Source: Myxococcota bacterium
GTDB lineage: Bacteria; Myxococcota_A; Polyangia; Nannocystales; Nannocystaceae
Reading direction: 5' to 3'
DNA length: 64,000 nt
NCBI GenBank assembly: GCA_039028615.1
Contig: JBCCHT010000001.1
Span: forward strand, 352,001-416,000
A program made the translations under genes and the position numbers. Shown here in pieces: positions 67 to 23,178 of this stretch (positions within the stretch are counted from its first letter, which is position 1; each line of letters begins with the position of its first letter). A model generated the notes under the pieces. That model saw only the letters and a list, made by a program, of their open reading frames with translations, did not search any database and had not been told where the DNA came from.

Positions 67-1734
67 ATGTCGATGGCGGATGACGAGAGCACGGGGCACC
101 GACTCGACCACGACTCCCTGCGGAGCGAGCTCGAGCAGGAAGTCGTGGCGATGAGCCTGTACCTCACCGGGGGCGGAGAGTCGCTGCCTCCCGAGGTCCT
201 GCCCATCCTGCGAGCGCTGGACGACGGTGCGAAGGTCGTGCCCTTCTCGCACCTCGCCCCCGCCCACTCGGCCCTGGCCAACCTCGCTGCGCCCGCTTCT
301 CCTCGCGCCCTCGTCGTCCTCAATCGCCACGGGGCCTTCGAGGGTCGACGCACCTACCGGCTGCTGCCGCTGTCGCGGGCCATGATGGCGGTGGCCGTCA
401 TCTCGATGCTCGGCCTGGTGTTGGTCGGCACCTCTCCGCTCGTCGGGCCCGATCCGACCCTCGCCAACCCCACGCTGTCCTCGGGGCTGCCGCTGCTGGT
501 CAATCAAGTCTTCTTCATGTTCGCGTCGGCGCTCGGCGCCGCCTTCCACGGCCTGTTCAGCCTCAACCGACACATCACCGAGGCCACCTACGACCCTCGC
601 TACGACTCCAGCTACTGGACCCGGCTCGTCCTCGGCATCATCGCGGGCACCATCTTGTGTCTGGTGGTCAAGGTCCCCCCCGACAGCTCGCTGTACGGCG
701 TCGGGCGTCACATCATCGCGCTCCTCGGCGGGTTCTCGGCCGGCCTCGTCCATCGCGTCCTCAATCGTCTCGTCTCCACCGTCGAAGGGTTGTTCGAGTC
801 CGATCCAAAGAGCGCCCGACGAAAGAGCGAGGCCGTGGCCGGCATCGCGCAGCGAAACGCCCGCGACGAGCAACGGATCCAAGCCGCGTCGACGTTGCTG
901 GACCTCCAGTCGAAGATCAGCGACGGAACGAGCGCCTCCGAGTTACGGGCTGAGCTGGGCAGAGCCGCCAATGCTCTCCGAGCGGGGTTCCCCTCTCCGC
1001 GCCCCCACCATGACGAGGGGAGCTCCGCGGACTCGCGCTCGGGTGAGCCCGACGAAACAGAGCCGAGCGCCTCACCCTCGGCACCGACGGATGACTCGAG
1101 CGCCGAGAGTGCCGACGCGCCCGTTGCCCCCGCTCCCGCCGCGGCCTCCCCAGCGGCACCCGTCGAGCCCGATCCGCCGGCCGCTCCCGCTTCGACCGCA
1201 CAGACTCACGCTCCCGCACCAGCCGCCCCTGCCCCTGCTGCACCCGTCTCTCCGCCTGCTCCCACGGCGCCCGTCGTCGCTCCCGCTCCCGCTCCTGCGG
1301 CCCCTGCTCCCGCTCCTGCGGCCCCTGCTCCCGCTCCTGCGGCCCCTCCCGTCGCTGCGCACGTTCCTGCGCCTGCGCCTGCTCCTGCTCCACCTCCCGT
1401 CGCTGCCCCCGTTCCTGCGCCTGCTCCTGCTCCACCTCCCGTCGCTGCCCCCGTTCCCGCGCCTGCGCCTGCGCCTACTGCACCTCCCGTCGCTGCGCCC
1501 GTTCCTGCGCCTGCGCCTGCTGCACCTCCTGTCGCTGCCCCCGTTCCCGCGCCTGCGCCTGCGCCTGCTGCACCTCCCGTCGCTGCGCCCGTTCCTGCTC
1601 CACCTCCCGTCGCTGCGCCCGTTCCTGCTCCGGCTGCACCTGCTGTCGCCGCCCCCGTTCCCGCGCCAACCGTTCAACCTGCTCCCGCTCCCGCCCCGAC
1701 CGCGGCCCCTGCTCCCACTCCTCACCAAACCTGA
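67..1734 (+). CDS. Multi-pass membrane protein with long Pro/Ala-rich C-terminal tail
   Basis: About 4 hydrophobic segments (AMMAVAVISMLGLVLVG, FFMFASALGAAF, LVLGIIAGTILCLVV, IIALLGGFSAGLV), then ~200 aa of PAPAPPPVAAPV repeats. Confidence 0.75.
   Translation: MSMADDESTGHRLDHDSLRSELEQEVVAMSLYLTGGGESLPPEVLPILRALDDGAKVVPFSHLAPAHSALANLAAPASPRALVVLNRHGAFEGRRTYRLLPLSRAMMAVAVISMLGLVLVGTSPLVGPDPTLANPTLSSGLPLLVNQVFFMFASALGAAFHGLFSLNRHITEATYDPRYDSSYWTRLVLGIIAGTILCLVVKVPPDSSLYGVGRHIIALLGGFSAGLVHRVLNRLVSTVEGLFESDPKSARRKSEAVAGIAQRNARDEQRIQAASTLLDLQSKISDGTSASELRAELGRAANALRAGFPSPRPHHDEGSSADSRSGEPDETEPSASPSAPTDDSSAESADAPVAPAPAAASPAAPVEPDPPAAPASTAQTHAPAPAAPAPAAPVSPPAPTAPVVAPAPAPAAPAPAPAAPAPAPAAPPVAAHVPAPAPAPAPPPVAAPVPAPAPAPPPVAAPVPAPAPAPTAPPVAAPVPAPAPAAPPVAAPVPAPAPAPAAPPVAAPVPAPPPVAAPVPAPAAPAVAAPVPAPTVQPAPAPAPTAAPAPTPHQT
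1213..1722 (+). repeat. Coding tandem repeats (PAPA / PPVAAPV units)
   Basis: Recurring cctcccgtcgctgc(g/c)cccgttcctgc units. Confidence 0.85.
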
Positions 1735-1847: not shown

Positions 1848-2519
1848 ATGTCGATCCGTAGACAGCTCGAGAAGACGCTCCGCCAACACCTCGGGTTCGC
1901 GGAGGTCACGTGGCCGACGTTCGGCATGCAAGTCAAAGTAGGCGACGCCGCCCGCTCTGGACGCGACGGGTTCGAGTTCTCCGGCCTCGGGAACCTGCTC
2001 CAGCGCTACGACCTCGATCCCGAGCGCTACCAGCCCATGGAGGAGGCACCGAGCATCGACATCGAGTTCAGCCATCAGGTGAGTCGAAGCTCGAGCCTCG
2101 CGGCCCAGTACCGCGCCGGCCAGACCGACGTGAAGGTCGACCTGCACTTCGAAACCGACACCGCGTTCTATCTGTTCGTGCCCAAGGCTCGCATTCGAAG
2201 CCTGCGAGACGTCGACTCGCTGGCATCCGACCTCCACCGGGCCTCTCAATCGCAGGGGAACCGAGTCCGCCTTCGTGAGCGCATCGTCTACAAGACCATC
2301 GAAGCAGAAGGACCCGGAACTCTGCTGATGTCGCAAGGCCGCAACACTCGAGCGCAGCTGGGCGCCGACCTCGGGAAGAAAGGCGGCGTGCTCCAGCTCA
2401 GCGGAGCCTCGGGCAACGTCACGCAGCTCAACGTCGAGGGGCCCTCATCGGTCTTCGCCTTCGGCGTCTTCCGACTCGCCGTCGGCCGGCGACACTACGT
2501 CCTCGACCCCGTCGACTGA
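1848..2519 (+). CDS. Putative bacterial gasdermin-like pore-forming protein
   Basis: Motif order resembles bacterial gasdermins by eye: LGFxxVxWP, LGNLL, VKVDLHF, IVYKTIEA, EGPSSVFAFGVFRL. ATG 1848, alternative GTG 1842. Confidence 0.55.
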   Translation: MSIRRQLEKTLRQHLGFAEVTWPTFGMQVKVGDAARSGRDGFEFSGLGNLLQRYDLDPERYQPMEEAPSIDIEFSHQVSRSSSLAAQYRAGQTDVKVDLHFETDTAFYLFVPKARIRSLRDVDSLASDLHRASQSQGNRVRLRERIVYKTIEAEGPGTLLMSQGRNTRAQLGADLGKKGGVLQLSGASGNVTQLNVEGPSSVFAFGVFRLAVGRRHYVLDPVD

Positions 2520-3899
2520 CGGGGGCCGCGGGTCGACGGTCCGCCCGGGCATCGAGCTGAACGCCACCTGGTCCGCCTCGTCGTCGATGAGATAAGCGTA
2601 GGGCGTCGCGTCGATGTCGGCATAGACCGCCCGCAACCGCTCGCTCTGCTCCACCGTCGGCATGGCTTCGATCCGCTGCCGCCCGGTGCCGAAGTCGAAC
2701 ACGTAGCGATAGCGCTGGTAGTAGGCTCGCCGGGGCGTTCGCATCTCCACCGACCGCAGGCTCTCGCGCATGCACTCGTCGGTCGCGGCATCGCCGATGG
2801 TGTCCTCGGTGACCGAGACGTCGTCGAACACCATCGCGACATCGGGTTCCCCGACCAGCGTCCCTTCGAGCACCAGGCGTCCCTCGTCGCGCCCGCCCAG
2901 CGAGACGAGGCAATCGTTGAACACCTCCAGCTCTTCGGCGATCTGTCGGTTGGTGTCGACAATGAGCTCGAGCATGGCCGCCGCATCGGGATTACTCGGT
3001 ATGGGCAGCCCATAGCGAGCGAGCATCGCCCCGGGCTCGGGCTCGGGCTCGGACGACGCGGCCTTCGACTGGACGGCACGAGCCTCGACCCCACGCGCTC
3101 CCGAGACCTTCGCGGACGGAGGAGCAGCAGCCGAAGCGTCGACAGGATGGGGTGTTCCGGCCGTAGGCGGCGGAGTGGCGGCGCCATCCTCAGGCCCCGC
3201 AGCCGTGGTCGTGGCCGCGGACGACTCGTCCGCCGAGGAGTAGGTCCAGGCGATGGTGGTCGCAACGATGGCAGCGGCAGCGAGGCCGAGCTTGGCAGAG
3301 TTCATGGTGATGCTCGCAGTCTTCAGCGGAGAGGGCAGCCACCCCAGGGGCAGCCATGCGGACAAGCGTTCGAAGAGCGGCTCGGCCTCCACACCGAGCT
3401 CGCGACGAAGCCGAGCGACCGCGCGCGACAGCCGAGTCCGAGCCGTCGAGGGTCGCAGCCCCAGCTCGGCGGCCAGCTCCGGCGCGCTGCGTTCCTCGTA
3501 GTAGCGCCCCACCACCAGTCGCCGATCGGTCGGATCGAGGGCCCTCAGGGCCGCGGCCAGGCGCTGCAGCTGCTGCTCGAGCTGGGCGCGGGCCTCTGGA
3601 GTCGACACCGAACCCGACTCGGCCACTGCCTGCTCCCGTCGTCGCCGACGCTCTCGGCTGCGCCACCGAGAGACGGCCCGGTTGCGCATCACCCCTGCGA
3701 TCCACGAGCGGGGTGCACGAGCGTCGTCACCCGCCCGCCACGCGGCAATGCGTGCCTCCTGCACCAGATCATCGACATCGAACGCCCCGGGGGCGATCTG
3801 GTGCGCCATGCGGCGCAGGTCGCTCGTAGAAACCTCGGACTGCATCTGCGGCTTCGTCACCTCCTGGTCGTCACCACCGAGCCGAGTGTCCCACGCCAT
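2445..3899 (-). CDS. ECF sigma factor fused to a TM helix and extracytoplasmic domain
   Basis: Region 2 (DDLVQEARIAAW, SWIAGVMRN), region 4 (ELAAELGLRPSTARTRLSRA), TM LGLAAAAIVATTIAW; start uncertain. Confidence 0.8.
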   Translation of the reverse strand: MAWDTRLGGDDQEVTKPQMQSEVSTSDLRRMAHQIAPGAFDVDDLVQEARIAAWRAGDDARAPRSWIAGVMRNRAVSRWRSRERRRRREQAVAESGSVSTPEARAQLEQQLQRLAAALRALDPTDRRLVVGRYYEERSAPELAAELGLRPSTARTRLSRAVARLRRELGVEAEPLFERLSAWLPLGWLPSPLKTASITMNSAKLGLAAAAIVATTIAWTYSSADESSAATTTAAGPEDGAATPPPTAGTPHPVDASAAAPPSAKVSGARGVEARAVQSKAASSEPEPEPGAMLARYGLPIPSNPDAAAMLELIVDTNRQIAEELEVFNDCLVSLGGRDEGRLVLEGTLVGEPDVAMVFDDVSVTEDTIGDAATDECMRESLRSVEMRTPRRAYYQRYRYVFDFGTGRQRIEAMPTVEQSERLRAVYADIDATPYAYLIDDEADQVAFSSMPGRTVDPRPPSVDGVEDVVSPADGESEDAEGEDR

Positions 3900-3971
3900 C
3901 GAAAAAAAGATCGACAAGCGCCACCCCGGAAGTCCGGGATGGCGCCCATGACGCGCTCTTCGCGTCCAGGC

Positions 3972-5417
3972 TCAGCCCACGCTGGCCGATGCGCCCTCTA
4001 CCGCGCCCGCGTCCATCGGGCTGCACTCGCTCGGTGCATGGCAACACCGAGGCGACGCGGGGACCACGATGCCGCGCTCGCACATCGACGTGAAGTCGTT
4101 GCGCACCGCCTGCGCCAAAAAGTGCGACGAATCCCCGAACGGCACGAAGGACTCCGGCACCTCGATCGTCGTCGTGGACAGGATCCAGTTGTGAGGCTGC
4201 TTGGCCCACCGCTCCGGGGCCCCCGTGGGGTACATCGATGCGACGGGCCGTCCCGCTTGCTCGAACAGATCGAGCCACGCCTTCTGCCCCTCGCTGCCCA
4301 GCGTGATGATGGTGTTGGCGAGCACCAGCTCTGCGGACTGGACCACGCGAGCGAGGAAGCCCGGCTCGCTGAGCAGCGGCGGAGGCTCGGGCACGCCGGT
4401 GAAGACGTCGAGGAGCACGAAGTCGTAGTGCTGCCCTCCCGACTCGAACACGTCGCGTGCGTCCGCCTGCACGATCTCCAGCCGCCCTTGCCGACGCAGT
4501 CGAGCCAGCCGCGGAAAGTACTTCTGCGCCATGTCGATGAGTGCGCCGTCGATCTCGACCACACGCAGGGTCATCTCGGGGAAGTTGCTCAACAACGAGA
4601 TCGCTCCCGCGCCGCTGCCCAAGCCGAGCATCAAGCCGTGCCCCTTCGGGTGACGACACCCCGCGAGCAACCACCCGGTCGTGAAGGGGCTGTAGGCGAA
4701 GGGGCCCGGCTGGGGCTGGTCGTCGTCGGAGCTCAGGTACATCGCCCCCTGGCACTGCTTGCCGATGAACAGGGCCCGCATGTCCTCGTCCTCGAGCACC
4801 CGCAGCACGTCGAAGGTCCCTTCCGCCTTGCACAGCTCGCGCGCCACCGATCCCGGCGGCGCATTGTCTCCCCCCGACTGACGCAGGCGCGCCATGCAAA
4901 AGCGCGCCTCCTCGTGCCGACCGAACTTGCGCAGCAGCAGCCCTCGGTTGAGCCACGCGTTGGCCAGCTGAGGATGCACCGCCAGCGCGCGCTCGTAGTG
5001 CTCCAGGGCCTCGCTCGCGTCCCCCATGCGCTGACGGGCATAGCCGGCATTGAAGTGGCACTCCGGGCGATCGGGATAGCTCCTCGCGAGCGCTTCGGCC
5101 GAGATCACCGCTTCCGCGTCGTCGCCCCGGTGCAGCAGGCACAGCGTGTGCGAGAGCCCCTGCTCGAGCTCGGGCGGCGGCAGCAGGGTCTCGACCTCAC
5201 TGAGCGCCTGTACGGCCGGCATGCACTCGTGGTCCGCCTCGCGCAGCAGATCGTTGAGCACCACGAAGATCGGCATCGACAGGCCACACGAGCACGTGTG
5301 AGCGACCGTCGAGTACACCAAGGGCCCCAGCTCGTGACCGACCGGTCCCTCCTTCCAGCGACTCGCGAATCCGTCATCGATCCGCCCGCACGCCGGACAG
5401 GTATGATGCACCAGCAT
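3972..5417 (-). CDS. Zn-ribbon + TPR + spermidine-synthase-like SAM methyltransferase fusion
   Basis: CPACG..CSCG; TPR (EALEHYERALAVHPQLANAWLNRG); LMLGLGSGAG, VVEID, DA, YDFVLLDVF; ORF is open to 5543. Confidence 0.75.
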   Translation of the reverse strand: MLVHHTCPACGRIDDGFASRWKEGPVGHELGPLVYSTVAHTCSCGLSMPIFVVLNDLLREADHECMPAVQALSEVETLLPPPELEQGLSHTLCLLHRGDDAEAVISAEALARSYPDRPECHFNAGYARQRMGDASEALEHYERALAVHPQLANAWLNRGLLLRKFGRHEEARFCMARLRQSGGDNAPPGSVARELCKAEGTFDVLRVLEDEDMRALFIGKQCQGAMYLSSDDDQPQPGPFAYSPFTTGWLLAGCRHPKGHGLMLGLGSGAGAISLLSNFPEMTLRVVEIDGALIDMAQKYFPRLARLRRQGRLEIVQADARDVFESGGQHYDFVLLDVFTGVPEPPPLLSEPGFLARVVQSAELVLANTIITLGSEGQKAWLDLFEQAGRPVASMYPTGAPERWAKQPHNWILSTTTIEVPESFVPFGDSSHFLAQAVRNDFTSMCERGIVVPASPRCCHAPSECSPMDAGAVEGASASVG

Positions 5418-5555
5418 CTCCGCCAGCTGCTGCGAAGACGACGGCTGATAGGCCCCACGTAGGGAATAGCCCTGATCGATGGGGCGCGACTCGAGGATGG
5501 AATCGGACCACTTCACGTTGGATCGACGCGCAACGGCCCTCATCGTGAAGGTTCT

Positions 5556-5579
5556 TCACAGCACCCGTGCCGGGTCGTC
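5556..5579 (+). promoter_or_regulatory. Putative ECF promoter TCACA-N15-CGTC upstream of the LuxR gene
   Basis: tcaca gcacccgtgccgggt cgtc, 14 nt before ATG 5594. Confidence 0.6.
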
Positions 5580-5593
5580 CCTTGGAATGCACG

Positions 5594-5932
5594 ATGCCCA
5601 ACGACGGCGAAGACGTCTGCGTCCTTCCGCAGACCGAGATGATGCATCCCGACGAGTCGGATCTCCCGCGGAGGTTCGTATCGAGCGACGAGTTCTTCGG
5701 CTGGCTGCGCGACCATCTCGTGGAGGAAGGTCGCCTCACCGAGGCCGAGGAGGAGACCTGCGAGCTGCTGCTCCTGGGCCGCAACTACCTCGAGATCGCC
5801 GCCGCACGCCGCGTCTCCATCGAGACCATCAAGTGGCACGTCAAACGAATCCTGCGCAAGCTCGGCGTGGGCTCCACCCGAGAGCTTCTGTGGGTGGTCG
5901 GCTACCGAATCGACCGCAAGAGCCTGTCGTAG
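5594..5932 (+). CDS. LuxR-family HTH transcriptional regulator (no sensor domain)
   Basis: LTEAEEETCELLLLGRNYLEIAAARRVSIETIKWHVKRILRKLGV. Confidence 0.85.
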   Translation: MPNDGEDVCVLPQTEMMHPDESDLPRRFVSSDEFFGWLRDHLVEEGRLTEAEEETCELLLLGRNYLEIAAARRVSIETIKWHVKRILRKLGVGSTRELLWVVGYRIDRKSLS

Positions 5933-6074
5933 GGCCGGCGACGGAGAACTCGAGGCACGACGACGCCGCGGGAGCAAAGCGCTCGACCGCGGCGTCGATG
6001 ATGGATCCACGAAAACGCCGGCCAACGGGAGGCGCGACGTTCCACGGATGGAAGCGAGGCCTGGCGATGGCCAG

Positions 6075-6587
6075 CTACTCTTGCGGGGCTGGTGCTGGCG
6101 CGGGTGCAGGAGCCGGCGCGGGTGCAGGTGCTGGCGCGGGTGCAGGGGCTGGCGCCGGTGCAGGGGCTGGCGCGGGTGCAGGAGCTGGCGCGGGTGCAGG
6201 AGCTGGCGCGGGTGCAGGAGCCGGCGCGGGTGCAGGGGCGGGCGCGGGTGCGGGTGCGGGTGCGGGCTCCGGCTCGACCGGCGAGAGGGTCAAGATGCCC
6301 TCGACCTGGATCTTCGTGCAGCAACAGCACTGCGGATTGACGTAGAGTTCCGCCATCGCCACCCGATCGGTGGCCGTGGTGGTGGAGTAGTAGATCGCCT
6401 GCGCAAGGCTGAAGATGCCGTCTTCCACCGCCAGCGAGTCGTCTTCGTCGCTGTTGCGCGACCGCGGGTACACCACTTCGGCGGTCGTGCCATCGTCGTT
6501 GACGACGTTGAACTGGAGGCGGTTGTAGCGTCGGGCGCTCGCGATCAGGCCGGTGATCTGGATCTTCTTCGTGACCATGTCGTGCAT
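6075..6587 (-). CDS. Hypothetical protein with CCCC motif and (PA)30 tail
   Basis: ~105-aa globular N-terminus with QCCCCT, then a pure Pro-Ala dipeptide tail; gagg before the start. Confidence 0.75.
   Translation of the reverse strand: MHDMVTKKIQITGLIASARRYNRLQFNVVNDDGTTAEVVYPRSRNSDEDDSLAVEDGIFSLAQAIYYSTTTATDRVAMAELYVNPQCCCCTKIQVEGILTLSPVEPEPAPAPAPAPAPAPAPAPAPAPAPAPAPAPAPAPAPAPAPAPAPAPAPAPAPAPAPAPAPAPQE
6084..6268 (-). repeat. Coding hexamer/18-mer repeat for (PA)n
   Basis: ggagctggcgcgggtgca-type units. Confidence 0.9.
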
Positions 6588-6656
6588 CCTCGCGAGGGCT
6601 CCGCGACCCTACCGTGGGTCCTGCGGGCGCCTCGTGCTCGTCCACCATCGTACTTG

Positions 6657-6733
6657 GATGCGCACGATCAGCAGCCCCCCCTTTACGGGGGCTCGTGCGC
6701 ATCTTCGCTGGGCCCCCCTTGTGAGGGGTGGCC
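6657..6733. promoter_or_regulatory. Nested inverted repeats; possible regulator boxes or hairpin
   Basis: gatgcgcacga...tcgtgcgcatc encloses ccccccctttacggggg; a second box ccccccttgtgagggg follows. Confidence 0.4.
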
Positions 6734-6757
6734 CCCTGACTCGTCGTCGCTACGATT

Positions 6758-7294
6758 TCATTCGGCGTCGGTATCGTCGGCAGCCGGTTTCGGCTGCATG
6801 CCGGGGAACTGCAGCGCGGGATAGCCGTTCAGGATGTGATCGGCCGCCCGGGTGATCATGCGGCGAGCCGGCCGATACCCGAACTCGGGATCGATCATGT
6901 CCTCAATGTACTCGTCGACCGCCGATGGTTCCGGCAACTTCGGTGCGCTCATCGTCCGCAGCGGCCCCAACGCGGTCAACAGGACCATCAGGTCCGCGCT
7001 CGACTCCAGCGAGAGCTCGGCGAGCTGTTTCTCGCGCGTTGCCACCTTCTCGAGCAGCGCGGTGAGTTCCGCCGCCAACCGCCGTAGCTCCTCGAGCTCG
7101 GCGATTTCGGCCGCGGTCACCCCCCCTGGCTCCACGGCCTCGGCGACCGTTCGGGCCGCCTCTGCGACCCGACTCCCCCCCGTCGTGCCGTCATCGGCCG
7201 TGGTGCCTTCGTCCGTGGCACTCGTATCGGCCTCGGCCGTCGAGTCGGTCGAATCCGTTTGCGGGGAACGGGATCTGTTGCGGGGTCGGGCCAC
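6758..7294 (-). CDS. Hypothetical coiled-coil protein
   Basis: Acidic N-terminus, helical EIAELEELRRLAAELTALLEK; GTG 7294 directly follows a promoter motif. Confidence 0.6.
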   Translation of the reverse strand: MARPRNRSRSPQTDSTDSTAEADTSATDEGTTADDGTTGGSRVAEAARTVAEAVEPGGVTAAEIAELEELRRLAAELTALLEKVATREKQLAELSLESSADLMVLLTALGPLRTMSAPKLPEPSAVDEYIEDMIDPEFGYRPARRMITRAADHILNGYPALQFPGMQPKPAADDTDAE

Positions 7295-7302
7295 AAAACC
7301 CT

Positions 7303-7326
7303 GACGACGGTCTCCGCGGTTTGTGA
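7303..7326 (-). promoter_or_regulatory. Putative ECF promoter TCACA-N15-CGTC
   Basis: Minus strand tcaca aaccgcggagaccgt cgtc, 8 nt before GTG 7294. Confidence 0.6.
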
Positions 7327-7336
7327 AGGAGTTGTG

Positions 7337-7753
7337 ATGGCTGATTTCGATTTCACCAAGATCCCCGAGATCGTCGCCGAGCGCCTGAACACCGTGGCGG
7401 CCGATTGTCAGCAGCGCGGGCAGGACATGTTCGAGAAGGCCCTCGCCGACCAGCGCACGCTGCTCGGTGAACTCGCCACCCCCGCACAACCGCTCATGAC
7501 CGCCACCGGGACGTTCGTGACCCGGTTGGCGAATCCGCCACCCAAGCCCAAGCCCAAGCCCGGTCAGGGCGGTGACGAACCCGGGCCCGAGCCTGCGCCA
7601 GCGCCCGCGCCCGCCCCAGCTCCCGCGCCAGCTCCCGCGCCCGAACCCGAGCCGGCACCTGCGCCCGCCCCAGCGCCCGAACCCGAGCCGGCACCTGCGC
7701 CCGCGCCCGCCCCAGCTCCCGAACCTGCGCCCGCGCCCGCGCCCGAAGGCTGA
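7337..7753 (+). CDS. Small helical protein with PAPEPE/PA tail
   Basis: aaggag RBS then ATG 7337 (MADFDFTKIPEIVAERL...). Confidence 0.75.
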   Translation: MADFDFTKIPEIVAERLNTVAADCQQRGQDMFEKALADQRTLLGELATPAQPLMTATGTFVTRLANPPPKPKPKPGQGGDEPGPEPAPAPAPAPAPAPAPAPEPEPAPAPAPAPEPEPAPAPAPAPAPEPAPAPAPEG

Positions 7754-7764
7754 ACGAGTCCGGC

Positions 7765-7944
7765 ATGGCCAGCTGGAAACTCGTCGATGTTCCCGACTCC
7801 GCCTCCGAGTACGTGGGCGAGATCCTCGAAGACTCGGGCAAGGTCGCCAAGTCGAATCTCACCAAGGAAGCGTCTCGGATCAATGAAGTCGCGGACACCG
7901 CCAAGGCGGTGATCATCATCCAGATCCTCGAGGCGGCGGGATGA
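7765..7944 (+). CDS. 59-aa hypothetical protein (absent from ORF track)
   Basis: MASWKLVDVPDSASEYVGEILEDSGKVAKSNLTKEASRINEVADTAKAVIIIQILEAAG; high GC3; TGA overlaps next ATG (ATGA). Confidence 0.7.
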   Translation: MASWKLVDVPDSASEYVGEILEDSGKVAKSNLTKEASRINEVADTAKAVIIIQILEAAG

Positions 7945-8198
7945 GTGCCAAGACCACCGTCTCGCAATACGTGGTGACGCCCGCCAACGTGCAGGCGAAC
8001 ATCGACGCCGCGCTGTACGTCGCCAACCAGACCGAGATTCTGACGACGGCGTCCACGGTTGCCGCGGCCCTGCTCGCCGCCGGGGAACCTCAGGGTGCTC
8101 CGGTCCTGGCGATCGTGCCGGTGATCCAGAGCCAGGTGGCCGAGTTTCCGGCCGAGCTCGCGGCAGCAACGGCGATCGCCCAGGCTCCCTTCGCCTGA
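7941..8198 (+). CDS. 85-aa Ala/Thr/Gln-rich hypothetical protein
   Basis: Translationally coupled by ATGA overlap; gaggcgg RBS. Confidence 0.7.
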   Translation: MSAKTTVSQYVVTPANVQANIDAALYVANQTEILTTASTVAAALLAAGEPQGAPVLAIVPVIQSQVAEFPAELAAATAIAQAPFA

Positions 8199-14532: not shown

Positions 14533-15282
14533 ATGGTGCCCACCGACATTCTCGACGTCCTGGCCGCTCGCCAGACCTTGGCCACGACGCCGCGCGCGTG
14601 GTTCGATGCGGCCGAAGGGGAGATATCGATCGAGCGCGCCAGGGAGCTGGTGGCCGACCGGGAAGACCCTGCGCTCATCGAGCGCTCCGCGGCCCTGTTT
14701 CGCCCGGGAGACCCTCGGATCGAGCAACGACGGCTGCGCATGCTCGTGGGCGAGCACTTCCCCGTCCGTCGTCGTTCGTGGCGACAGCCGCTGCTCATCG
14801 GCGTGAGCCTGGCCGCCGCGCTGCTGTTGGTGCTGAACCTCGGCGATCCAGCCTCACGGGGCCCCGGCTCCGTCGCGTTGGCGCAGTACTCCATCGAGCT
14901 CGAACGCAGCGCCAAGACCCTGCGCGGGGACGAGCCCCCGTCCGTCGCGGTCTTTTTCGCCGACCGTCGGCTCCGAGCCACGCTGCGCCCGTGGACCGCA
15001 ATCACGACCCCCGTCGAAGCGGCGGCGTACGTCTGCGAGGCCGACGGCAGCCTGCGCCCCCTTCCCCTCCAGCCGCGAGCCTCCCACGACGGGGTGATCG
15101 TGGTCGACGACGCGATCGCCGATCTCGGCCTCGGGCTCGGGCTGGTCGATCTGGTGTTCGTCGTCGGCCCTCGCGGCGAGCTCCCCGTCCCCGAAGACTG
15201 CCGCGGCGACGCCCTGTTGCCCTCCCAAGACCATGCTCGAACGATTCGCACCCGCATCGAGATCCAGCCGCCGCCGGGCTAG
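14533..15282 (+). CDS. Putative anti-sigma-like membrane protein
   Basis: Directly after the ECF gene; single TM LLIGVSLAAALLLVL. Confidence 0.6.
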   Translation: MVPTDILDVLAARQTLATTPRAWFDAAEGEISIERARELVADREDPALIERSAALFRPGDPRIEQRRLRMLVGEHFPVRRRSWRQPLLIGVSLAAALLLVLNLGDPASRGPGSVALAQYSIELERSAKTLRGDEPPSVAVFFADRRLRATLRPWTAITTPVEAAAYVCEADGSLRPLPLQPRASHDGVIVVDDAIADLGLGLGLVDLVFVVGPRGELPVPEDCRGDALLPSQDHARTIRTRIEIQPPPG

Positions 15283-17944
15283 CGCTGCGCTGGTCTGCGC
15301 GCTCGTAGCGAGCTGCAGCGGGGCCGAGAGCCCCGAGGCGGGGCCGCGCGCGGTCGACTCGCTCGAAGTCGACTATGGGCACTGCCTGGCCGTTCGCCAC
15401 GCCGAGGTTCCCACCTGCGTGCTCGAGAGCGACTCGCTGCGCCTGTGGCTGCGTCACCCCGATGCGGAGCATGCCACCGTCTACGTCGATGGCGTCGACA
15501 TCGAGCCCTCTCAGTTTCGTCACGAAGAACTCGTGGGTCTGGGCCTTCGGCTCACCCTCCCGGAGTCCGCTCGACACCTCAAGGTCGAAATCGACACCGC
15601 CAGCGGTGCACCCACGGCGTGGGAGCTCGAGCTGTCGCACGACGACCCGAACCCGTTGTTCGCCTCCGTCCGCACCGCCATCGACAAAGACCTCCAAAAG
15701 GGCGACACCGCGGCGGCCATCGCTCGACTCGACGACGTTCGCATCGCCTACCCCAACACCACCGAGACGCTCGATGTCGCGTTCGCGGCCGTGTTCTGGC
15801 TGGCCCGCGACGTCAATGCTCTCCCCCTGGCCGAGACCCTCCTCGACGACTACGCCCCGCTCGCCCGAAAGTCGCCCCAGGGGCGCGCGGAGCTGGCCAT
15901 CAATCGCGGCCTGCTGCACTGGTATCGCGGACGCCTCGACCAGGCCGCCATGGCCTACCGCGAGGCGGCTCAATACGCGCTCCGCTCCGAGGACTCGTAC
16001 CGCCAGATGGCCACGATTCCGATGTACGCCGACATGCTGGCGGAGCTCGGCTATCTCGGCGCAGCGATGCACTGGGTTCGACACACCGAGCGTCGGCTCG
16101 ACAAAGGCTCCAATTCGCCGGAGGTCATCGGGTCCGTGTCCCGCACCTTGGGCTGGATCGGCCTGCTCCTGAACGCCGCCGGTCGCGACGAGTCCGATCC
16201 CGGGCCCCACCTGTACGAAGCACTCGAGATCTTCGGTCCACGGGGCGCGGCACCCCGGCCCAAGAAAGTCGGCGGCGTGCGACTGGGGCTCGCCCGGCTC
16301 GCGCTCGATCGAGCTCGGCCTGGCGAAGCGCTCGCGCAGCTGGAGCAGATCGACCCCAAGAAGATCACGCCCGACGAGTACTCCCACGCCGTCGAGCTCG
16401 AGATTCGGGCGCGGCTCGAAGGCGGCGAGAGCACGCCCGAAATCGAGGCGCTCATCGAAGAATACGAAGACATCGCCTCTCGCTCGCATACCCCTCAGGT
16501 CGCGTGGACGGCCGCCGTCATCCGGGGGCGCCTCGCGGAAGTGGAAGGTCGGGTCGACGACGCGATCGAGCACTATCGCGACGCCGAAGCGCTGCGGGAC
16601 GAGGTCCTCACCCTCACTGTGTTCGGGGCGGGACGAAGCAATGCCGGCGCGCTCGATCCAGAAGCCACGGAGCGCTTGGTCACCCTGCTGCTCGATCGGG
16701 GCCGAGCCGAGGAAGCCCTGTGCACCGCCCGACTCGCCCAGGCGCGCACGGTGCAGACCCTCGTCATGCCCAGCTCGCTCAGCCGAGGCGAGCGGCGCGA
16801 CATCGAGGAGCAGACCCTCGCCTATATCGGGTTGGGCCAGCAGATCCACGACCTGGAGCGCTCCGGCCGTGAGCGCTCCGGCGAGCGGCTCGAGCGAGTG
16901 CGGCGAGAAGCGACCCAGCTGCGCCGAGAGCTCCAGCGCCAGGCCACCGCGCTCACGCTCGCGCGCGCCCAGCTCTCCGGTGGCCTCGAGTGCAGCGACC
17001 TGACGCCGCGGCAGCCGGGCGAGCTCATCGTGGCTCTTTATCCGCAGGGCCCCGACTGGGTGATGTTCGTGCTCGACGACGGCGCGCTGACGGTCCACCC
17101 GCTGGCCACCTCCGGGCGACTGTCGTCGCTGCCCACCGAACAACAGGCTGCGCTGCTCGTCGATCCCATCGCCGACCGTCTGCGAGCCGCCTCCCGGGTC
17201 CGCGTGCTCGCCACGGGCGATGCCAACCACGTCGACGTGCATGCGCTAGGGCTCGACGGCCAGCCCCTGGTCGCTCGCCTCCCCGTGCACTACGCAGCCG
17301 AGCTGCCCTCGAGCACGGCGTCCTCCGCTGTGTCCTCCGATCGACGACACGCGCTGCTGCTGGCCGATCCCACGCGCTCGCTGTGGGCGGCATCGAGCGA
17401 GGTTCGCACCGCGGGCGGGCTGCTGAGCGAAGCGGGGTGGTCGACCTCGCAGCCGAGCGACCCGGGCTCGCTCCTGCAGGTCATCGAAGAGCTCGAGACG
17501 GCCGACCTGTTCCACCACGCCGGACATGCGGACGCCGCCACCCCGACGAACGTGGCGAGCCTGTGGCCTCCCTACCAAGGAGGTGCGCCCGGCTGGCCCT
17601 CGTATCTGCAGCTCGAGCCCCCCGTACAGCTCGCGGTGCACGAGATCCTGCTGCTGTCCCACGCACCCCGCCACGTGGTGCTCAACGCGTGCCGTAGCGG
17701 GGTCGTCGACGTGCAGCACGCGGGCACGAGCCTCGCATTGGCGTTCCTGGCCGCGGGCAGCGAACAGGTCTTGGCCTCGCCCGAAGCCACCGAAGACCTG
17801 CTCGACGCCGAGCTCGGGCAGCGGCTGTACGAAGGCCTGACTCCCGGCGAGCCCCTCGACCTCGCCGTCCAGCTGCACCGGCTCATGGCACGACGCGTCG
17901 CGGCGGGCGACAGTGTGGGGCGACTACGGGTCTGGAGCCGTTGA
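15233..17944 (+). CDS. TPR + CHAT (caspase-like) protease, lipoprotein-like N-terminus
   Basis: Catalytic motifs FHHAGHA and VVLNACRSG; LALAFLAAGSEQV; LVASC. Confidence 0.85.
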   Translation: MLERFAPASRSSRRRASAALVCALVASCSGAESPEAGPRAVDSLEVDYGHCLAVRHAEVPTCVLESDSLRLWLRHPDAEHATVYVDGVDIEPSQFRHEELVGLGLRLTLPESARHLKVEIDTASGAPTAWELELSHDDPNPLFASVRTAIDKDLQKGDTAAAIARLDDVRIAYPNTTETLDVAFAAVFWLARDVNALPLAETLLDDYAPLARKSPQGRAELAINRGLLHWYRGRLDQAAMAYREAAQYALRSEDSYRQMATIPMYADMLAELGYLGAAMHWVRHTERRLDKGSNSPEVIGSVSRTLGWIGLLLNAAGRDESDPGPHLYEALEIFGPRGAAPRPKKVGGVRLGLARLALDRARPGEALAQLEQIDPKKITPDEYSHAVELEIRARLEGGESTPEIEALIEEYEDIASRSHTPQVAWTAAVIRGRLAEVEGRVDDAIEHYRDAEALRDEVLTLTVFGAGRSNAGALDPEATERLVTLLLDRGRAEEALCTARLAQARTVQTLVMPSSLSRGERRDIEEQTLAYIGLGQQIHDLERSGRERSGERLERVRREATQLRRELQRQATALTLARAQLSGGLECSDLTPRQPGELIVALYPQGPDWVMFVLDDGALTVHPLATSGRLSSLPTEQQAALLVDPIADRLRAASRVRVLATGDANHVDVHALGLDGQPLVARLPVHYAAELPSSTASSAVSSDRRHALLLADPTRSLWAASSEVRTAGGLLSEAGWSTSQPSDPGSLLQVIEELETADLFHHAGHADAATPTNVASLWPPYQGGAPGWPSYLQLEPPVQLAVHEILLLSHAPRHVVLNACRSGVVDVQHAGTSLALAFLAAGSEQVLASPEATEDLLDAELGQRLYEGLTPGEPLDLAVQLHRLMARRVAAGDSVGRLRVWSR

Positions 17945-19793: not shown

Positions 19794-20621
19794 ATGGCCG
19801 ATTCCTATGACCATGCTGCCCACCAACACTCGATCCAAGAACGGAAAGACGCCCTGAGTATAGGGGTAGACCTGGGCGCAGAAGAATCCGAGCAAGTACG
19901 CCGCCGGCTGAACGAAATCGCGCTGGGCGTGTCGGAAATCAACTCGGAGCTCCAAGAAGTCCGCGACCGACTGCCGCGGGATCGACTCCGCGCCCCGACC
20001 AGCCGACCCCGCACGGACCTCGGCCAAGCCCTCGCGGAGGGTCTCCGTCGAGACGCCGGAGTGCCCGAGTCCGATGCCAACTCCGCCGGCCGCAATGCGG
20101 CCGACCGCATCAAGGACTTCGCCCGCGACAACGACTCGGACATGACCGACCGGGAGCTGGCCAATGTGGTGCGAGGGATCGATCCGGACGGGATCAACAA
20201 CTCCGATGACTATGGCGACGCGGTCTACAACGCGGTGAAGGACGCGGTCCTGGAACCGGGCCGAGACCTGCCCCACCACATGCGCAACCTCGAGGAGGCC
20301 CGAGACATCCTCGCGGCCGCCGGCTCACCCAGCGGGGGCCGAAGAAGCTCCCCGTGCGACAAGCCGAACGAGCCCGATCTGCCGACCCTGGCCGCCCCTC
20401 CCCCCTCGGGTGCCAGCAGCGAGGTCCTGCGCGACGTCAGCCACCTGACCACGCTCCTGCTCGGCTCGAGCCCCGCCTTCGCCGAGGCCATGCGCTTCCA
20501 GAGCGACGCGGTCGCCTACTCGCTGGCCGCCCTCAACAAGGTGAGCGACATGCAGCGCCAAGACGCGCTCGGCCTCGCCATCACCGCCCGCGCGGCGGCG
20601 ACCAAGTTCGAGAATTCATAA
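19794..20621 (+). CDS. Protein with divergent C-terminal Reb-like domain
   Basis: C-terminal DVSHLTTLLLGSSPAFAEAMRFQSDAVAYSLAALNKVSDMQRQ aligns by eye with DSVTQVNTKILGDAPAQAMATLYQ..SGIALQNAVHAQNNQ. Confidence 0.6.
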   Translation: MADSYDHAAHQHSIQERKDALSIGVDLGAEESEQVRRRLNEIALGVSEINSELQEVRDRLPRDRLRAPTSRPRTDLGQALAEGLRRDAGVPESDANSAGRNAADRIKDFARDNDSDMTDRELANVVRGIDPDGINNSDDYGDAVYNAVKDAVLEPGRDLPHHMRNLEEARDILAAAGSPSGGRRSSPCDKPNEPDLPTLAAPPPSGASSEVLRDVSHLTTLLLGSSPAFAEAMRFQSDAVAYSLAALNKVSDMQRQDALGLAITARAAATKFENS

Positions 20622-20674
20622 ACCCGTAACATCCACCCCTTCTCGATCCACATCCCAGCATTGAAAGCAGACCG

Positions 20675-21001
20675 ATGGCAGACTCCGTGAATCCTAAGGT
20701 CACCGACAGTGTCTCAGAGGTCAATACGCTGGTCCTCGGTGACGCCCCCGCCCAGGCGATGGCGACACTGTTCCAGACATCGGCCGCTTCGGCGGGGATT
20801 GCAATGCAAAATGCCGTCCACGCCCAGAGCAACCAACACGCCATCAACGTCGCGGCTACGGCGGAGGCGATTGCATTGTTGTTCAACAGCCCAACGGCCG
20901 CCTCGGCCCAGGCTGCCACCAAACTCGACGGAGCGCAGCTCCAGGTATTGGAACGGCTCACCTCGATCATCGAGGGCATGAACAACACGAATTCCCGCTA
21001 G
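20675..21001 (+). CDS. reb: RebB-family R-body protein
   Basis: VNPKVTDSVSEVNTLVLGDAPAQAMATLFQ...MQNAV. Confidence 0.9.
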   Translation: MADSVNPKVTDSVSEVNTLVLGDAPAQAMATLFQTSAASAGIAMQNAVHAQSNQHAINVAATAEAIALLFNSPTAASAQAATKLDGAQLQVLERLTSIIEGMNNTNSR

Positions 21002-21126
21002 ACCCTCACAGTAATATTCGCGCCATTGCAACGAGGGTATTTGGATCTTCTTCGAGTCATCGCCTTGGGTGATATCCAAGACGGCGATCTTTGCTAGGCG
21101 CAATCAACGAGACAAGGAACGAAACA

Positions 21127-21453
21127 ATGGCAGATACCGTAGCACCGATGATCACCGACTCCATCACTCAGGTCAATACGAAGGTCCTGGGAGACGCCCC
21201 CGCGCAGGCGATGGGCACGCTATTCCAGACCGCCGGCGCCACTTCCGGCATCGCGCTGCAGAATGCCGTCCACGCCCAGAACAACCAGTATGCGCTGAAC
21301 AACGCGACCACCACCGAGGGTGTGAACCTGCTGTTCACCTCGCCCACGGCCGCGTCGGCCCAGGCCGCGACGAAGATCGACGCGGGCTTCGAGGGCGTCA
21401 TGTCGCGCCTCGACGGTCTCATCCTGAACTTTCGCAGCGTTTCTGGCCGATAG
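21127..21453 (+). CDS. reb: RebB-family R-body protein
   Basis: ITDSITQVNTKVLGDAPAQAMGTLFQ; aagga RBS. Confidence 0.92.
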   Translation: MADTVAPMITDSITQVNTKVLGDAPAQAMGTLFQTAGATSGIALQNAVHAQNNQYALNNATTTEGVNLLFTSPTAASAQAATKIDAGFEGVMSRLDGLILNFRSVSGR

Positions 21454-21625
21454 GCAGGATCCTCGCCGGGTTCCCTTCCTGGGGCCCCTATTGGCCGCTG
21501 CCTTGGTCATCGAGGCAGCGGCTCCCACCGGAGCCACCGGGCTCCACACTCGGGCGTGAACTCGAGCGGCACGGACCGTGTCCTCGTCACCTCCCTGAAC
21601 CACTGAACGAGAAAAGGACGAGACG

Positions 21626-21952
21626 ATGGCAGACACCGTTGCACCCATGATCACGGACTCGATTACCCAGGTCAACACGAAGATCCTGGGAGACGCCCCC
21701 GCCCAAGCGATGGGCACGCTATTCCAGACCGCGGCCGCGACCTCGGGCATCGCGTTGCAGAACGCGGTCCATGCTCAAAACAACCAGTACTCGATCAACA
21801 ACGCGGCAACCGTCGAAGGTGTGAACTTGCTGTTCACCTCGGCCACCGCGGCGTCGGCTCAGGCCGCGACCAAACTCGACGCCGGATTCGAGGGCGTGAT
21901 GGCCCGCATCACCGGCTTGGTCCAGAACTTCCAAACCGTCTCCGGTCGATAG
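21626..21952 (+). CDS. reb: RebB-family R-body protein
   Basis: Near-identical paralog; aaagga RBS. Confidence 0.92.
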   Translation: MADTVAPMITDSITQVNTKILGDAPAQAMGTLFQTAAATSGIALQNAVHAQNNQYSINNAATVEGVNLLFTSATAASAQAATKLDAGFEGVMARITGLVQNFQTVSGR

Positions 21953-22131
21953 CGGGGACACTCATCGGGCTCCGATCGCCGAGCCCTTCCAGGCCGCCGC
22001 TTCGATGGTCGGAGCGTCGGTCGCCAGGGGAGCCCTCGGGCTCCACATGGTCGTGAACAACCAGCGATAGGGGGCGCAATCTCTGCCCTCGCCGTTGACT
22101 CGCTCAACCCAACAAACGAAAAGGACAGACG

Positions 22132-22461
22132 ATGGCAGACACCGTTGCACCCATGATCACCGACTCGGTCACCCAGGTGAATACCAAGATCCTCGGTGAC
22201 GCGCCCGCTCAGGCGATGGCGACCCTCTATCAGACCGCCGCCGCCACCTCGGGCATCGCGCTCCAGAACGCGGTCCACGCTCAGAACAACCAGTACGCGC
22301 TCAACAACGCGGCGACCACCGAAGGCGTCAACCTGCTCTACACCTCGCCCACGGCCGCTTCGGCCGCCGCGGCGACGAAGATCGACGCCGGCTTCGAGGG
22401 CGTGATGGCCCGCCTCGACGGGCTCATCATCAACGCTCGAACCGTCGGCGGACGCCAGTAG
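22132..22461 (+). CDS. reb: RebB-family R-body protein
   Basis: ITDSVTQVNTKILGDAPAQAMATLYQ. Confidence 0.92.
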   Translation: MADTVAPMITDSVTQVNTKILGDAPAQAMATLYQTAAATSGIALQNAVHAQNNQYALNNAATTEGVNLLYTSPTAASAAAATKIDAGFEGVMARLDGLIINARTVGGRQ

Positions 22462-22577
22462 TCCGCTCGACCGTGGCGCGGGAGCCCGCAAGGAGCTCCC
22501 CGCCACCGCCATGGCGACCAGGGCCTCCCTGGTCGCCGACCCAAGTTTCAGGCTAGGCACGCGACGGAACCAACGAC

Positions 22578-22808
22578 ATGGCCGATAGTCCGACGACGGT
22601 GAACCCGCAAATTACCGATGCGGTCACCCAGGCCAACACCAAGGTGTTGGCAGAAGCGCCCGCGATGTCGGTCGCGCTCGTCTATCAGATGTTCGCGCAG
22701 AGCGTCGGCCTAGCCATCCAGAACTCGACCTCGAACCAACAGAACATGCAGGCCGTCGCCGGTGCGGCCACGGCGAAAGCCATCGAGAAGATCGCCTCGA
22801 TCTCGTGA
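22578..22808 (+). CDS. reb: Short RebB-family R-body protein
   Basis: PTTVNPQITDAVTQANTKVLAEAPAMSVALVYQ, canonical Reb N-terminal motif. Confidence 0.92.
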   Translation: MADSPTTVNPQITDAVTQANTKVLAEAPAMSVALVYQMFAQSVGLAIQNSTSNQQNMQAVAGAATAKAIEKIASIS

Positions 22809-22824
22809 ACGATAGGAGCGCAGC

Positions 22825-23178
22825 GTGTCCGACGTAGTGAACCCGCAAGTCATGGATGCGGTGACGCAGGCCCAGCAGTTCGTCATCACCAACACCTCGA
22901 CCGGCTACGCGAATCAGGTCGTCCAGTCCAACGTCACGCACTCGGTCGGCCTGGCCATCGTCGATGCGACCGACTACGTCCGCAACGTGACCGCCGTGAG
23001 CACGGCCATCACCGGTGTCGCGCTCCGCAAGATGCTCGAGGACGTGAGCAACGTGCCCCAGGCGACCGCAGCGTTGACCGCCGCGATGACGGCGGTGGAG
23101 AACGCGACCAAGAATCTCGAATCAGTGGGCAAAGCCGCAGGCCAGGTGCTGTCGGCGTGGCCCGCGGGCGACGGTTGA
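22825..23178 (+). CDS. Divergent Reb-like / R-body-associated protein
   Basis: VVNPQVMDAVTQ N-terminus, SVGLAIVDATDYVRN; aggag RBS. Confidence 0.7.
   Translation: MSDVVNPQVMDAVTQAQQFVITNTSTGYANQVVQSNVTHSVGLAIVDATDYVRNVTAVSTAITGVALRKMLEDVSNVPQATAALTAAMTAVENATKNLESVGKAAGQVLSAWPAGDG

Follow-up and report, generated by a model that had tools for sequence, protein, structure and literature searches.

Most bacterial gasdermins carry C-terminal inhibitory tails of 17–67 residues (PMC13475620); that of the Vitiosangium protein comprises 29 residues (PMC10153256), and truncation of the tail makes the Runella, Bradyrhizobium and Vitiosangium gasdermins toxic (10.1101/2021.06.07.447441). Cleavage-independent mechanisms have been placed in animals and fungi (10.64898/2026.10.05.756811), and the accessible parts of the literature compared here, including PMC10989679 and PMC13305819, report cleavage-independent gasdermins in these two groups only. 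The Neurospora proteins RCD-1-1 and RCD-1-2 (PDB codes 8JYX, 8JYY and 8JYZ) consist of the pore domain only, have no inhibitory C-terminus (PMC11760362) and need two allelic forms. The Trichoplax gasdermin (PDB codes 8JYV and 8JYW) is also a cleavage-independent pore domain alone and is held as a disulfide-linked dimer (PMC13475620). The pyroptolysins have a bacterial gasdermin fold and are encoded mostly by solitary genes, not in protease operons; at the C-terminus they have an Ig-like sterol-binding domain (bioRxiv 10.64898/2026.10.05.756811).

We analysed a window of 64,000 nucleotides from a myxobacterial genome (G000), together with genomes G001, G002 and G003 of the same genus (g1), within a set of 73 genomes of the family; the myxobacterial assignment accords with the labels Nannocystaceae and Deltaproteobacteria on same-genus loci. 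Positions 1848–2519 (+) of the window hold an open frame for a protein of 223 aa, with the following features.

1848..2519, + strand: gasdermin pore domain alone, 223 aa, without inhibitory tail or Cys (model, structure matches, alignment)
2055..2150, + strand: first predicted membrane-inserting hairpin, residues 70–101, with an alternating hydrophobic pattern (model, hydropathy)
2316..2435, + strand: second predicted hairpin, residues 157–196, with an alternating pattern (model, hydropathy)
2490..2510, + strand: terminal motif RxYV(L/I)DP, a short strand in the model (invariance, model, alignment to 8SL0)

An in-frame GTG located 6 nt 5' of the start at 1848 offers an alternative start; a Met occupies the position equivalent to 1848 in seven of eight aligned homologues, the eighth being without its N-terminus. 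No hydrophobic signal or transmembrane segment was found in the 223 aa, the highest 19-residue hydropathy mean being 1.1.

Sequence-based searches with this protein returned nothing significant in Pfam (in a copy without PF26164), PDB sequences, PADLOC or NCBIfam, and the Atlas provided a lead only, with Bact_GSDM on 11–12% of the members of two neighbouring clusters; its first-ranked cluster is a Bacteroidota one of 216 aa. The AlphaFold2 model (mean pLDDT 87.0, pTM 0.83, from a 43-row alignment) has the twisted β-sheet fold of a gasdermin N-terminal domain. Foldseek gave 14 matches at E ≤ 0.001, every one of them a gasdermin, and in a structure search against 48,161 chains gasdermins form the top 14 rows among the matches listed. 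The highest score (Z = 11.0, r.m.s.d. = 3.9, 156 aligned residues) was obtained for the cleaved Vitiosangium gasdermin (PDB code 8SL0), with model residues 2–221 superimposed onto chain residues 6–233; the Trichoplax gasdermin scored Z = 7.8 and the RCD-1 proteins Z = 7.2–7.7. The Vitiosangium, Runella and Bradyrhizobium gasdermins (PDB codes 8SL0, 9A84 and 7N50–7N52) share the fold at 8–14% identity. A first-pass annotation, made by eye, had called the protein a gasdermin from five motifs, which are indeed present in the order given. Its motif pattern was confirmed by none of the sequence libraries searched; the call is borne out by structure instead, through the model and Foldseek comparison that it had itself proposed.

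Two amphipathic hairpins that could supply four barrel strands are predicted from hydropathy and the modelled strands. Both are shortened. The first (span 74–99) measures 24–26 residues against a median of 31 in tailed relatives, a difference of about 5–6 residues, and the second (span 160–196) measures 37–38 residues against 43 in 34 of 34 tailed rows, without a stretch of 5 residues that forms a helix in the model of a tailed relative. These shortened hairpins and the missing lipid anchor would suit a protein that has lost pore formation, and hence its tail and protease, and has since become a scaffold, small channel or decoy. The long stem branch of the clade (1.31 changes per column) is in keeping with this, as is the dN/dS of the gene (0.38–0.55 over 6 pairs, a rough estimate in GC-rich DNA), which indicates faster change than in the neighbouring deacetylase-like gene (0.20–0.29). 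However, both hairpins keep their alternating hydrophobic pattern across the tail-less clade and the model best matches pore-state structures, and we consider such a non-lytic role unlikely.

The same annotation had described a protein that ends 13 residues after VFRL, contains no Cys and lacks an inhibitory C-terminal peptide, and all three points hold. Residue 221 corresponds to residue 233 of 8SL0, with two residues beyond it, and alignment places the terminal motif opposite the final ordered residues of the cleaved Vitiosangium protein. This end column is shared by seven homologues (51–74% identity). In the tailed relative P0027, residue 233 of 8SL0 maps to residue 223 of 255 and 32 more residues follow, modelled as a disordered acidic loop and then a final ten residues of moderate confidence (pLDDT 58–78). 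At the four loci with DNA, none of the three frames beyond the stop encodes an acidic tail. A sequencing error behind the short end is ruled out, all eight close homologues ending 14 residues past the conserved Arg; a premature stop or frameshift was rejected, since the homologues share the end point and no tail is encoded past the stop. A tail supplied in trans was rejected as well, as no tail-like peptide was found in G000 (best 8 bits, whereas 33 of the 34 tails used to build the profile score 13–43). Decay of a pseudogene is contradicted by the dN/dS values, the lack of stops and the conserved form. Because the seven homologues share the end column and dN/dS lies at 0.4–0.55, the form is conserved and not decaying. 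The pore domain is therefore, by nature, equal to the cleaved, tail-removed form of bacterial gasdermins, and is conserved as such in a small myxobacterial clade. That the protein is both a gasdermin and tail-less we regard as nearly certain.

Within the terminal motif, R215, Y217, V218, D220 and P221 are invariant in all eight sequences, whereas the aligned stretch varies in tailed kin. An alignment to the inactive Runella structure reaches chain residue 259, inside the Runella tail, and the invariant last strand could therefore be a minimal brake, with the caveat that this alignment is poor (r.m.s.d. = 9.0, compared to 3.9 for 8SL0). The last strand, or the fingers, may thus hold the gasdermin inactive until a trigger binds, be it a protein partner, a phage protein or, as for fungal RCD-1, the gasdermin of another strain. 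RCD-1 proteins are likewise without a tail and are inert alone (PMC11760362), and persistence of the gasdermin gene outside the R-body locus in G001 also fits such self-restraint. However, a profile search found one gasdermin among the 93,687 six-frame segments of G000, and no second one was found in G003; a partner for pairing of two forms as in RCD-1 might still come from another strain or be too distant for the profile. Cysteines for a disulfide switch of the Trichoplax type are not conserved either: four of the eight clade members have none and the others one each, at three different positions. We view restraint by the protein itself as possible, if somewhat doubtful.

Profile searches yielded 91 distinct gasdermin-like rows, of which 14 have at most 18 residues after the last conserved Arg, 71 have tails of 31–82 residues, 5 have long C-terminal domains and 1 is a fragment. 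A Cys occurs within the first 12 residues in only one of the 91 rows (four are without a clear N-terminus of their own), and it is absent also from tailed, protease-linked members. Judged from these sequences, absence of the palmitoylated-type N-terminal Cys characterises the family as a whole; the first-pass annotation was right about its absence, which is not special to this protein. The nearest sequence relatives (21–26%) are acidic-tailed myxobacterial gasdermins (P0010–P0043 and the family loci), likewise without the N-terminal Cys. They differ from the tail-less protein in keeping a tail of at least 31 residues, usually acidic, and in often adjoining C25-like, CHAT, S8 or trypsin proteases. 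No description of this acidic-tailed, Cys-less group was found in the literature compared.

In a quick tree of 87 of the 91 rows, which leaves out four fragmentary or doubtful ones, the clade of the tail-less protein is well supported (98) and sits on a long branch. Tail-less forms need three changes on this tree, which is still compatible with a single origin. The tail-less gene itself is present in 3 of the 73 genomes (G000, G001 and G003). Recent truncation of the tailed gasdermin beside the G002 locus was rejected, the identity of the two being 24–25%, compared to ~60–70% for the larger neighbouring genes, and their placement in the quick tree separate. A phage origin was rejected too, as no relative was found in viral contigs or a phage collection.

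The survey also returned several other architectures. A 1240-aa frame (L102:320-4042, − strand, G474:C105) that starts at a contig end has a P-loop NTPase-like region and helical repeats, with a tail-less gasdermin domain at its end; by eye it resembles an NLR-type sensor–gasdermin fusion, and NCBIfam gave no match. In a 715-aa protein (L029:112-2256, − strand, G469:C128), an acidic linker connects a gasdermin with a peptidoglycan-binding domain (Pfam E 1e-9); another region of this protein is possibly a wall hydrolase. In four genomes of genus g4 (L095–L098, e.g. L097:4550-6280, + strand), a gasdermin domain is followed by a hydrophobic segment and an extension of 290–380 residues, and no protease neighbour was seen at these loci. 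Other tail-less gasdermin-like proteins of 210–230 aa (L014:1492-2211, L099:1405-2076, L103:4172-4966, L104 and P0009) lie among housekeeping genes and on long branches. Similar small proteins of ~105 aa (L048:10059-10373 and L049:8643-9014) are encoded directly beside two tailed gasdermins; the one of them that was scanned had no Pfam match. At L050, a tailed gasdermin is flanked on one side by a trypsin-like protease and on the other by a VgrG-like spike gene (43-2295 and 3540-5039).

Of 37 tailed loci, 17 have a protease gene no more than ~1.5 kb away, versus none of seven tail-less loci. This contrast is only suggestive: the count leaves out fusions, two doubtful rows and one too-short contig, the kin are not independent, and 20 of the 37 tailed loci likewise show no protease, many of them with short flanks. 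None was found beside the tail-less gasdermin in G000, G001 or G003. The nearest CHAT protease gene (15233–17944) lies 12.7 kb away, inside an 11-kb kinase/sigma/CHAT insertion that is absent from the locus in G002 and G003, and it is one of 10 homologues in G000. The first-pass annotation had brought the CHAT protease into its proposed check; its place in a non-conserved insertion and its nine other homologues make it a weak candidate. It retains His and Cys in catalytic-type motifs, so that hidden proteolysis may be envisaged, this distant enzyme either trimming the final few residues or cutting internally. Given the non-conserved insertion, and a model without a disordered linker like the 22-residue one of the tailed relative, we hold this to be very improbable. 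The gasdermin fold, the missing tail and the lack of an adjacent protease gene support the cleavage-independence proposed in the first-pass annotation, and the protein is therefore probably cleavage-independent.

Because the three defining features of the protease-activated bacterial systems (tail, N-terminal Cys and adjacent protease) all fail, we do not file the protein with them. It also differs from the pyroptolysins in ending at the pore-domain boundary. In being tail-less it appears to come closest to RCD-1 or the Trichoplax gasdermin, with no second form detected and no cysteines. As far as we have searched, a tail-less bacterial gasdermin is undescribed: none was found by title or start of abstract, and supplementary sequence tables may list short forms.

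The surroundings of the gene bear on how such a protein could be controlled, and comprise the following features.

67..1734, + strand: membrane protein of a widespread family without a name, with a Pro/Ala tail (three hydrophobic peaks, homologue search)
3972..8198, no strand assigned: conserved block linking the gasdermin site to rebB in genomes of the same genus (synteny)
19794..23178, + strand: R-body cluster (rebB, PF11747) of five to six rebB genes (family match, synteny)

The locus runs from a GH25 muramidase with a peptidoglycan-binding domain, encoded just upstream of the window, through an ECF sigma factor, a deacetylase-like gene (a label read by eye, with no family match) and the membrane protein to the gasdermin. 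This five-gene run is co-directional in G000 and G003, with the gasdermin last; its co-transcription is inferred from orientation only, and no promoter was identified for it. A convergent block follows (3972..8198: a TPR/spermidine-synthase-like gene, a LuxR-like gene and small genes), and then the five or six rebB genes, which lie 18 kb from the gasdermin in G000 owing to the 11-kb insertion. Gene order is conserved between G000 and G003, and the gasdermin abuts the same downstream gene in L009. The muramidase is in the locus in G000, G001 and G003, the three genomes with the tail-less gene. The G002 locus is without muramidase, membrane protein and tail-less gene; immediately upstream of its ECF gene lies a tailed gasdermin accompanied by a C25-like protease. 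In G476 the ECF and deacetylase-like genes directly follow the rebB genes. On the opposite strand, a gene at 2445–3917 (−), absent from the G003 locus, encodes an ECF sigma factor that is extended considerably at its C-terminus, and the end of this gene runs over the final 75 bases of the gasdermin gene. Upstream of the window, L001:10517-11539 (−) is metalloprotease-like; its HExxH reads HMTGH, and it is probably inactive. Pro/Ala repeat tails occur on several genes of the locus (1140–1730, 6075–6260 and 7570–7750), with similar ones in G003.

The membrane protein at 67–1734 had been put forward in the first-pass annotation as a partner of the gasdermin, and the evidence on this is divided. 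It lies directly upstream of the gasdermin in two of three genomes (G000 and G003), and within genus g1 the orthologue tracks the gasdermin gene, occurring, among five other genomes, only in the two that have the tail-less gene. On the other hand, the two genes are on different contigs in G001, where an unrelated gene precedes the gasdermin, and around homologues in six genomes of genus g14 no gasdermin was present in the 11–13 kb fetched, five of these genomes having no gasdermin match at all. The protein is thus a weak candidate partner, and there is a slim chance that it releases a self-restrained gasdermin, as a minor form of that alternative.

The link to R-bodies is confined to one genus. 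Matches to rebB occur in 20 of the 73 genomes, in six genera; 13 of these genomes also have a gasdermin match and 7 have none. The two lie at most 20 kb apart only in G000 and G002, G003 adding a third case by synteny across a contig break. All cases fall in genus g1, with no recurrence in unrelated lineages, and the proximity may therefore be a single insertion. The tail-less gasdermin lies inside the conserved rebB locus in G000 and, across the contig break, in G003. In G001 it lies outside, on a separate contig, and the gene found after the gasdermin in G003 has a different neighbour there. No literature linking gasdermins with R-bodies was found, at partial coverage, and the accessible main text of two reb surveys of 2026 (PMC13430693 and PMC13689365) has no mention of Myxococc- or Myxoc-. 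The same surveys suggest that R-body killing involves an unknown toxin, and there is precedent for a gasdermin fold working as an external, lipid-gated toxin harmless to E. coli (10.64898/2026.10.05.756811). Together with the position of the gene in the rebB locus, this raises the alternative that the protein does not act on the producer's own membrane but on a different lipid, being released with R-bodies inside a grazing protist. However, it is without the sterol-binding Ig-like domain, the rebB link is limited as described, and two triterpene cyclase matches in G000 indicate that the producer's own membrane may hold sterols or hopanoids. An outward-directed toxin is, in our assessment, distinctly unlikely.

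Tail removal kills in bacterial gasdermins, and a natural form without tail and Cys therefore needs another control. The reading we favour, tentatively, is a cleavage-independent bacterial gasdermin under expression control, used for terminal lysis. The tail-less gasdermin would form β-barrel pores without cleavage, and the cell would survive because transcriptional control normally keeps the gene silent. Its likeliest use would be terminal lysis of a subpopulation that switches the R-body locus on; pores breaching the inner membrane could let the muramidase reach the wall, in a holin-like manner. The reb genes of Pseudomonas are expressed stochastically, and their expression depends on a sigma factor of the cluster (PMC8322103). 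This reading is favoured by a protein that spans the cleaved form, by hairpins that stay amphipathic, by the lack of a protease at all seven tail-less loci, by a single gasdermin and no tail-like peptide found in G000, and by the gene order shared between G000 and G003 with the muramidase in the locus in all three genomes that have the tail-less gene. Peptidoglycan-enzyme neighbours or fusions at some further loci of the family (L029, L049 and L109) give mild support to the muramidase role. The gasdermin outside the locus in G001, the rebB link in one genus and the shortening of both hairpins argue against it, as does the palmitoylated Cys that the Vitiosangium gasdermin needs for killing (PMC10153256). 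The more specific proposal, that the R-body locus has recruited a no-cleavage bacterial gasdermin, either as a holin-like pore acting with the muramidase or as the long-sought R-body-released toxin, seems to us quite unlikely.

The survey exposes a family of Cys-less myxobacterial gasdermins with several unusual fusions. If the R-body link is functional, the gasdermin would be a candidate for how R-body makers lyse or kill, which recent papers leave unresolved. In the bacterium studied here, a natural and selected gasdermin without tail and Cys points to control by a means other than cleavage.
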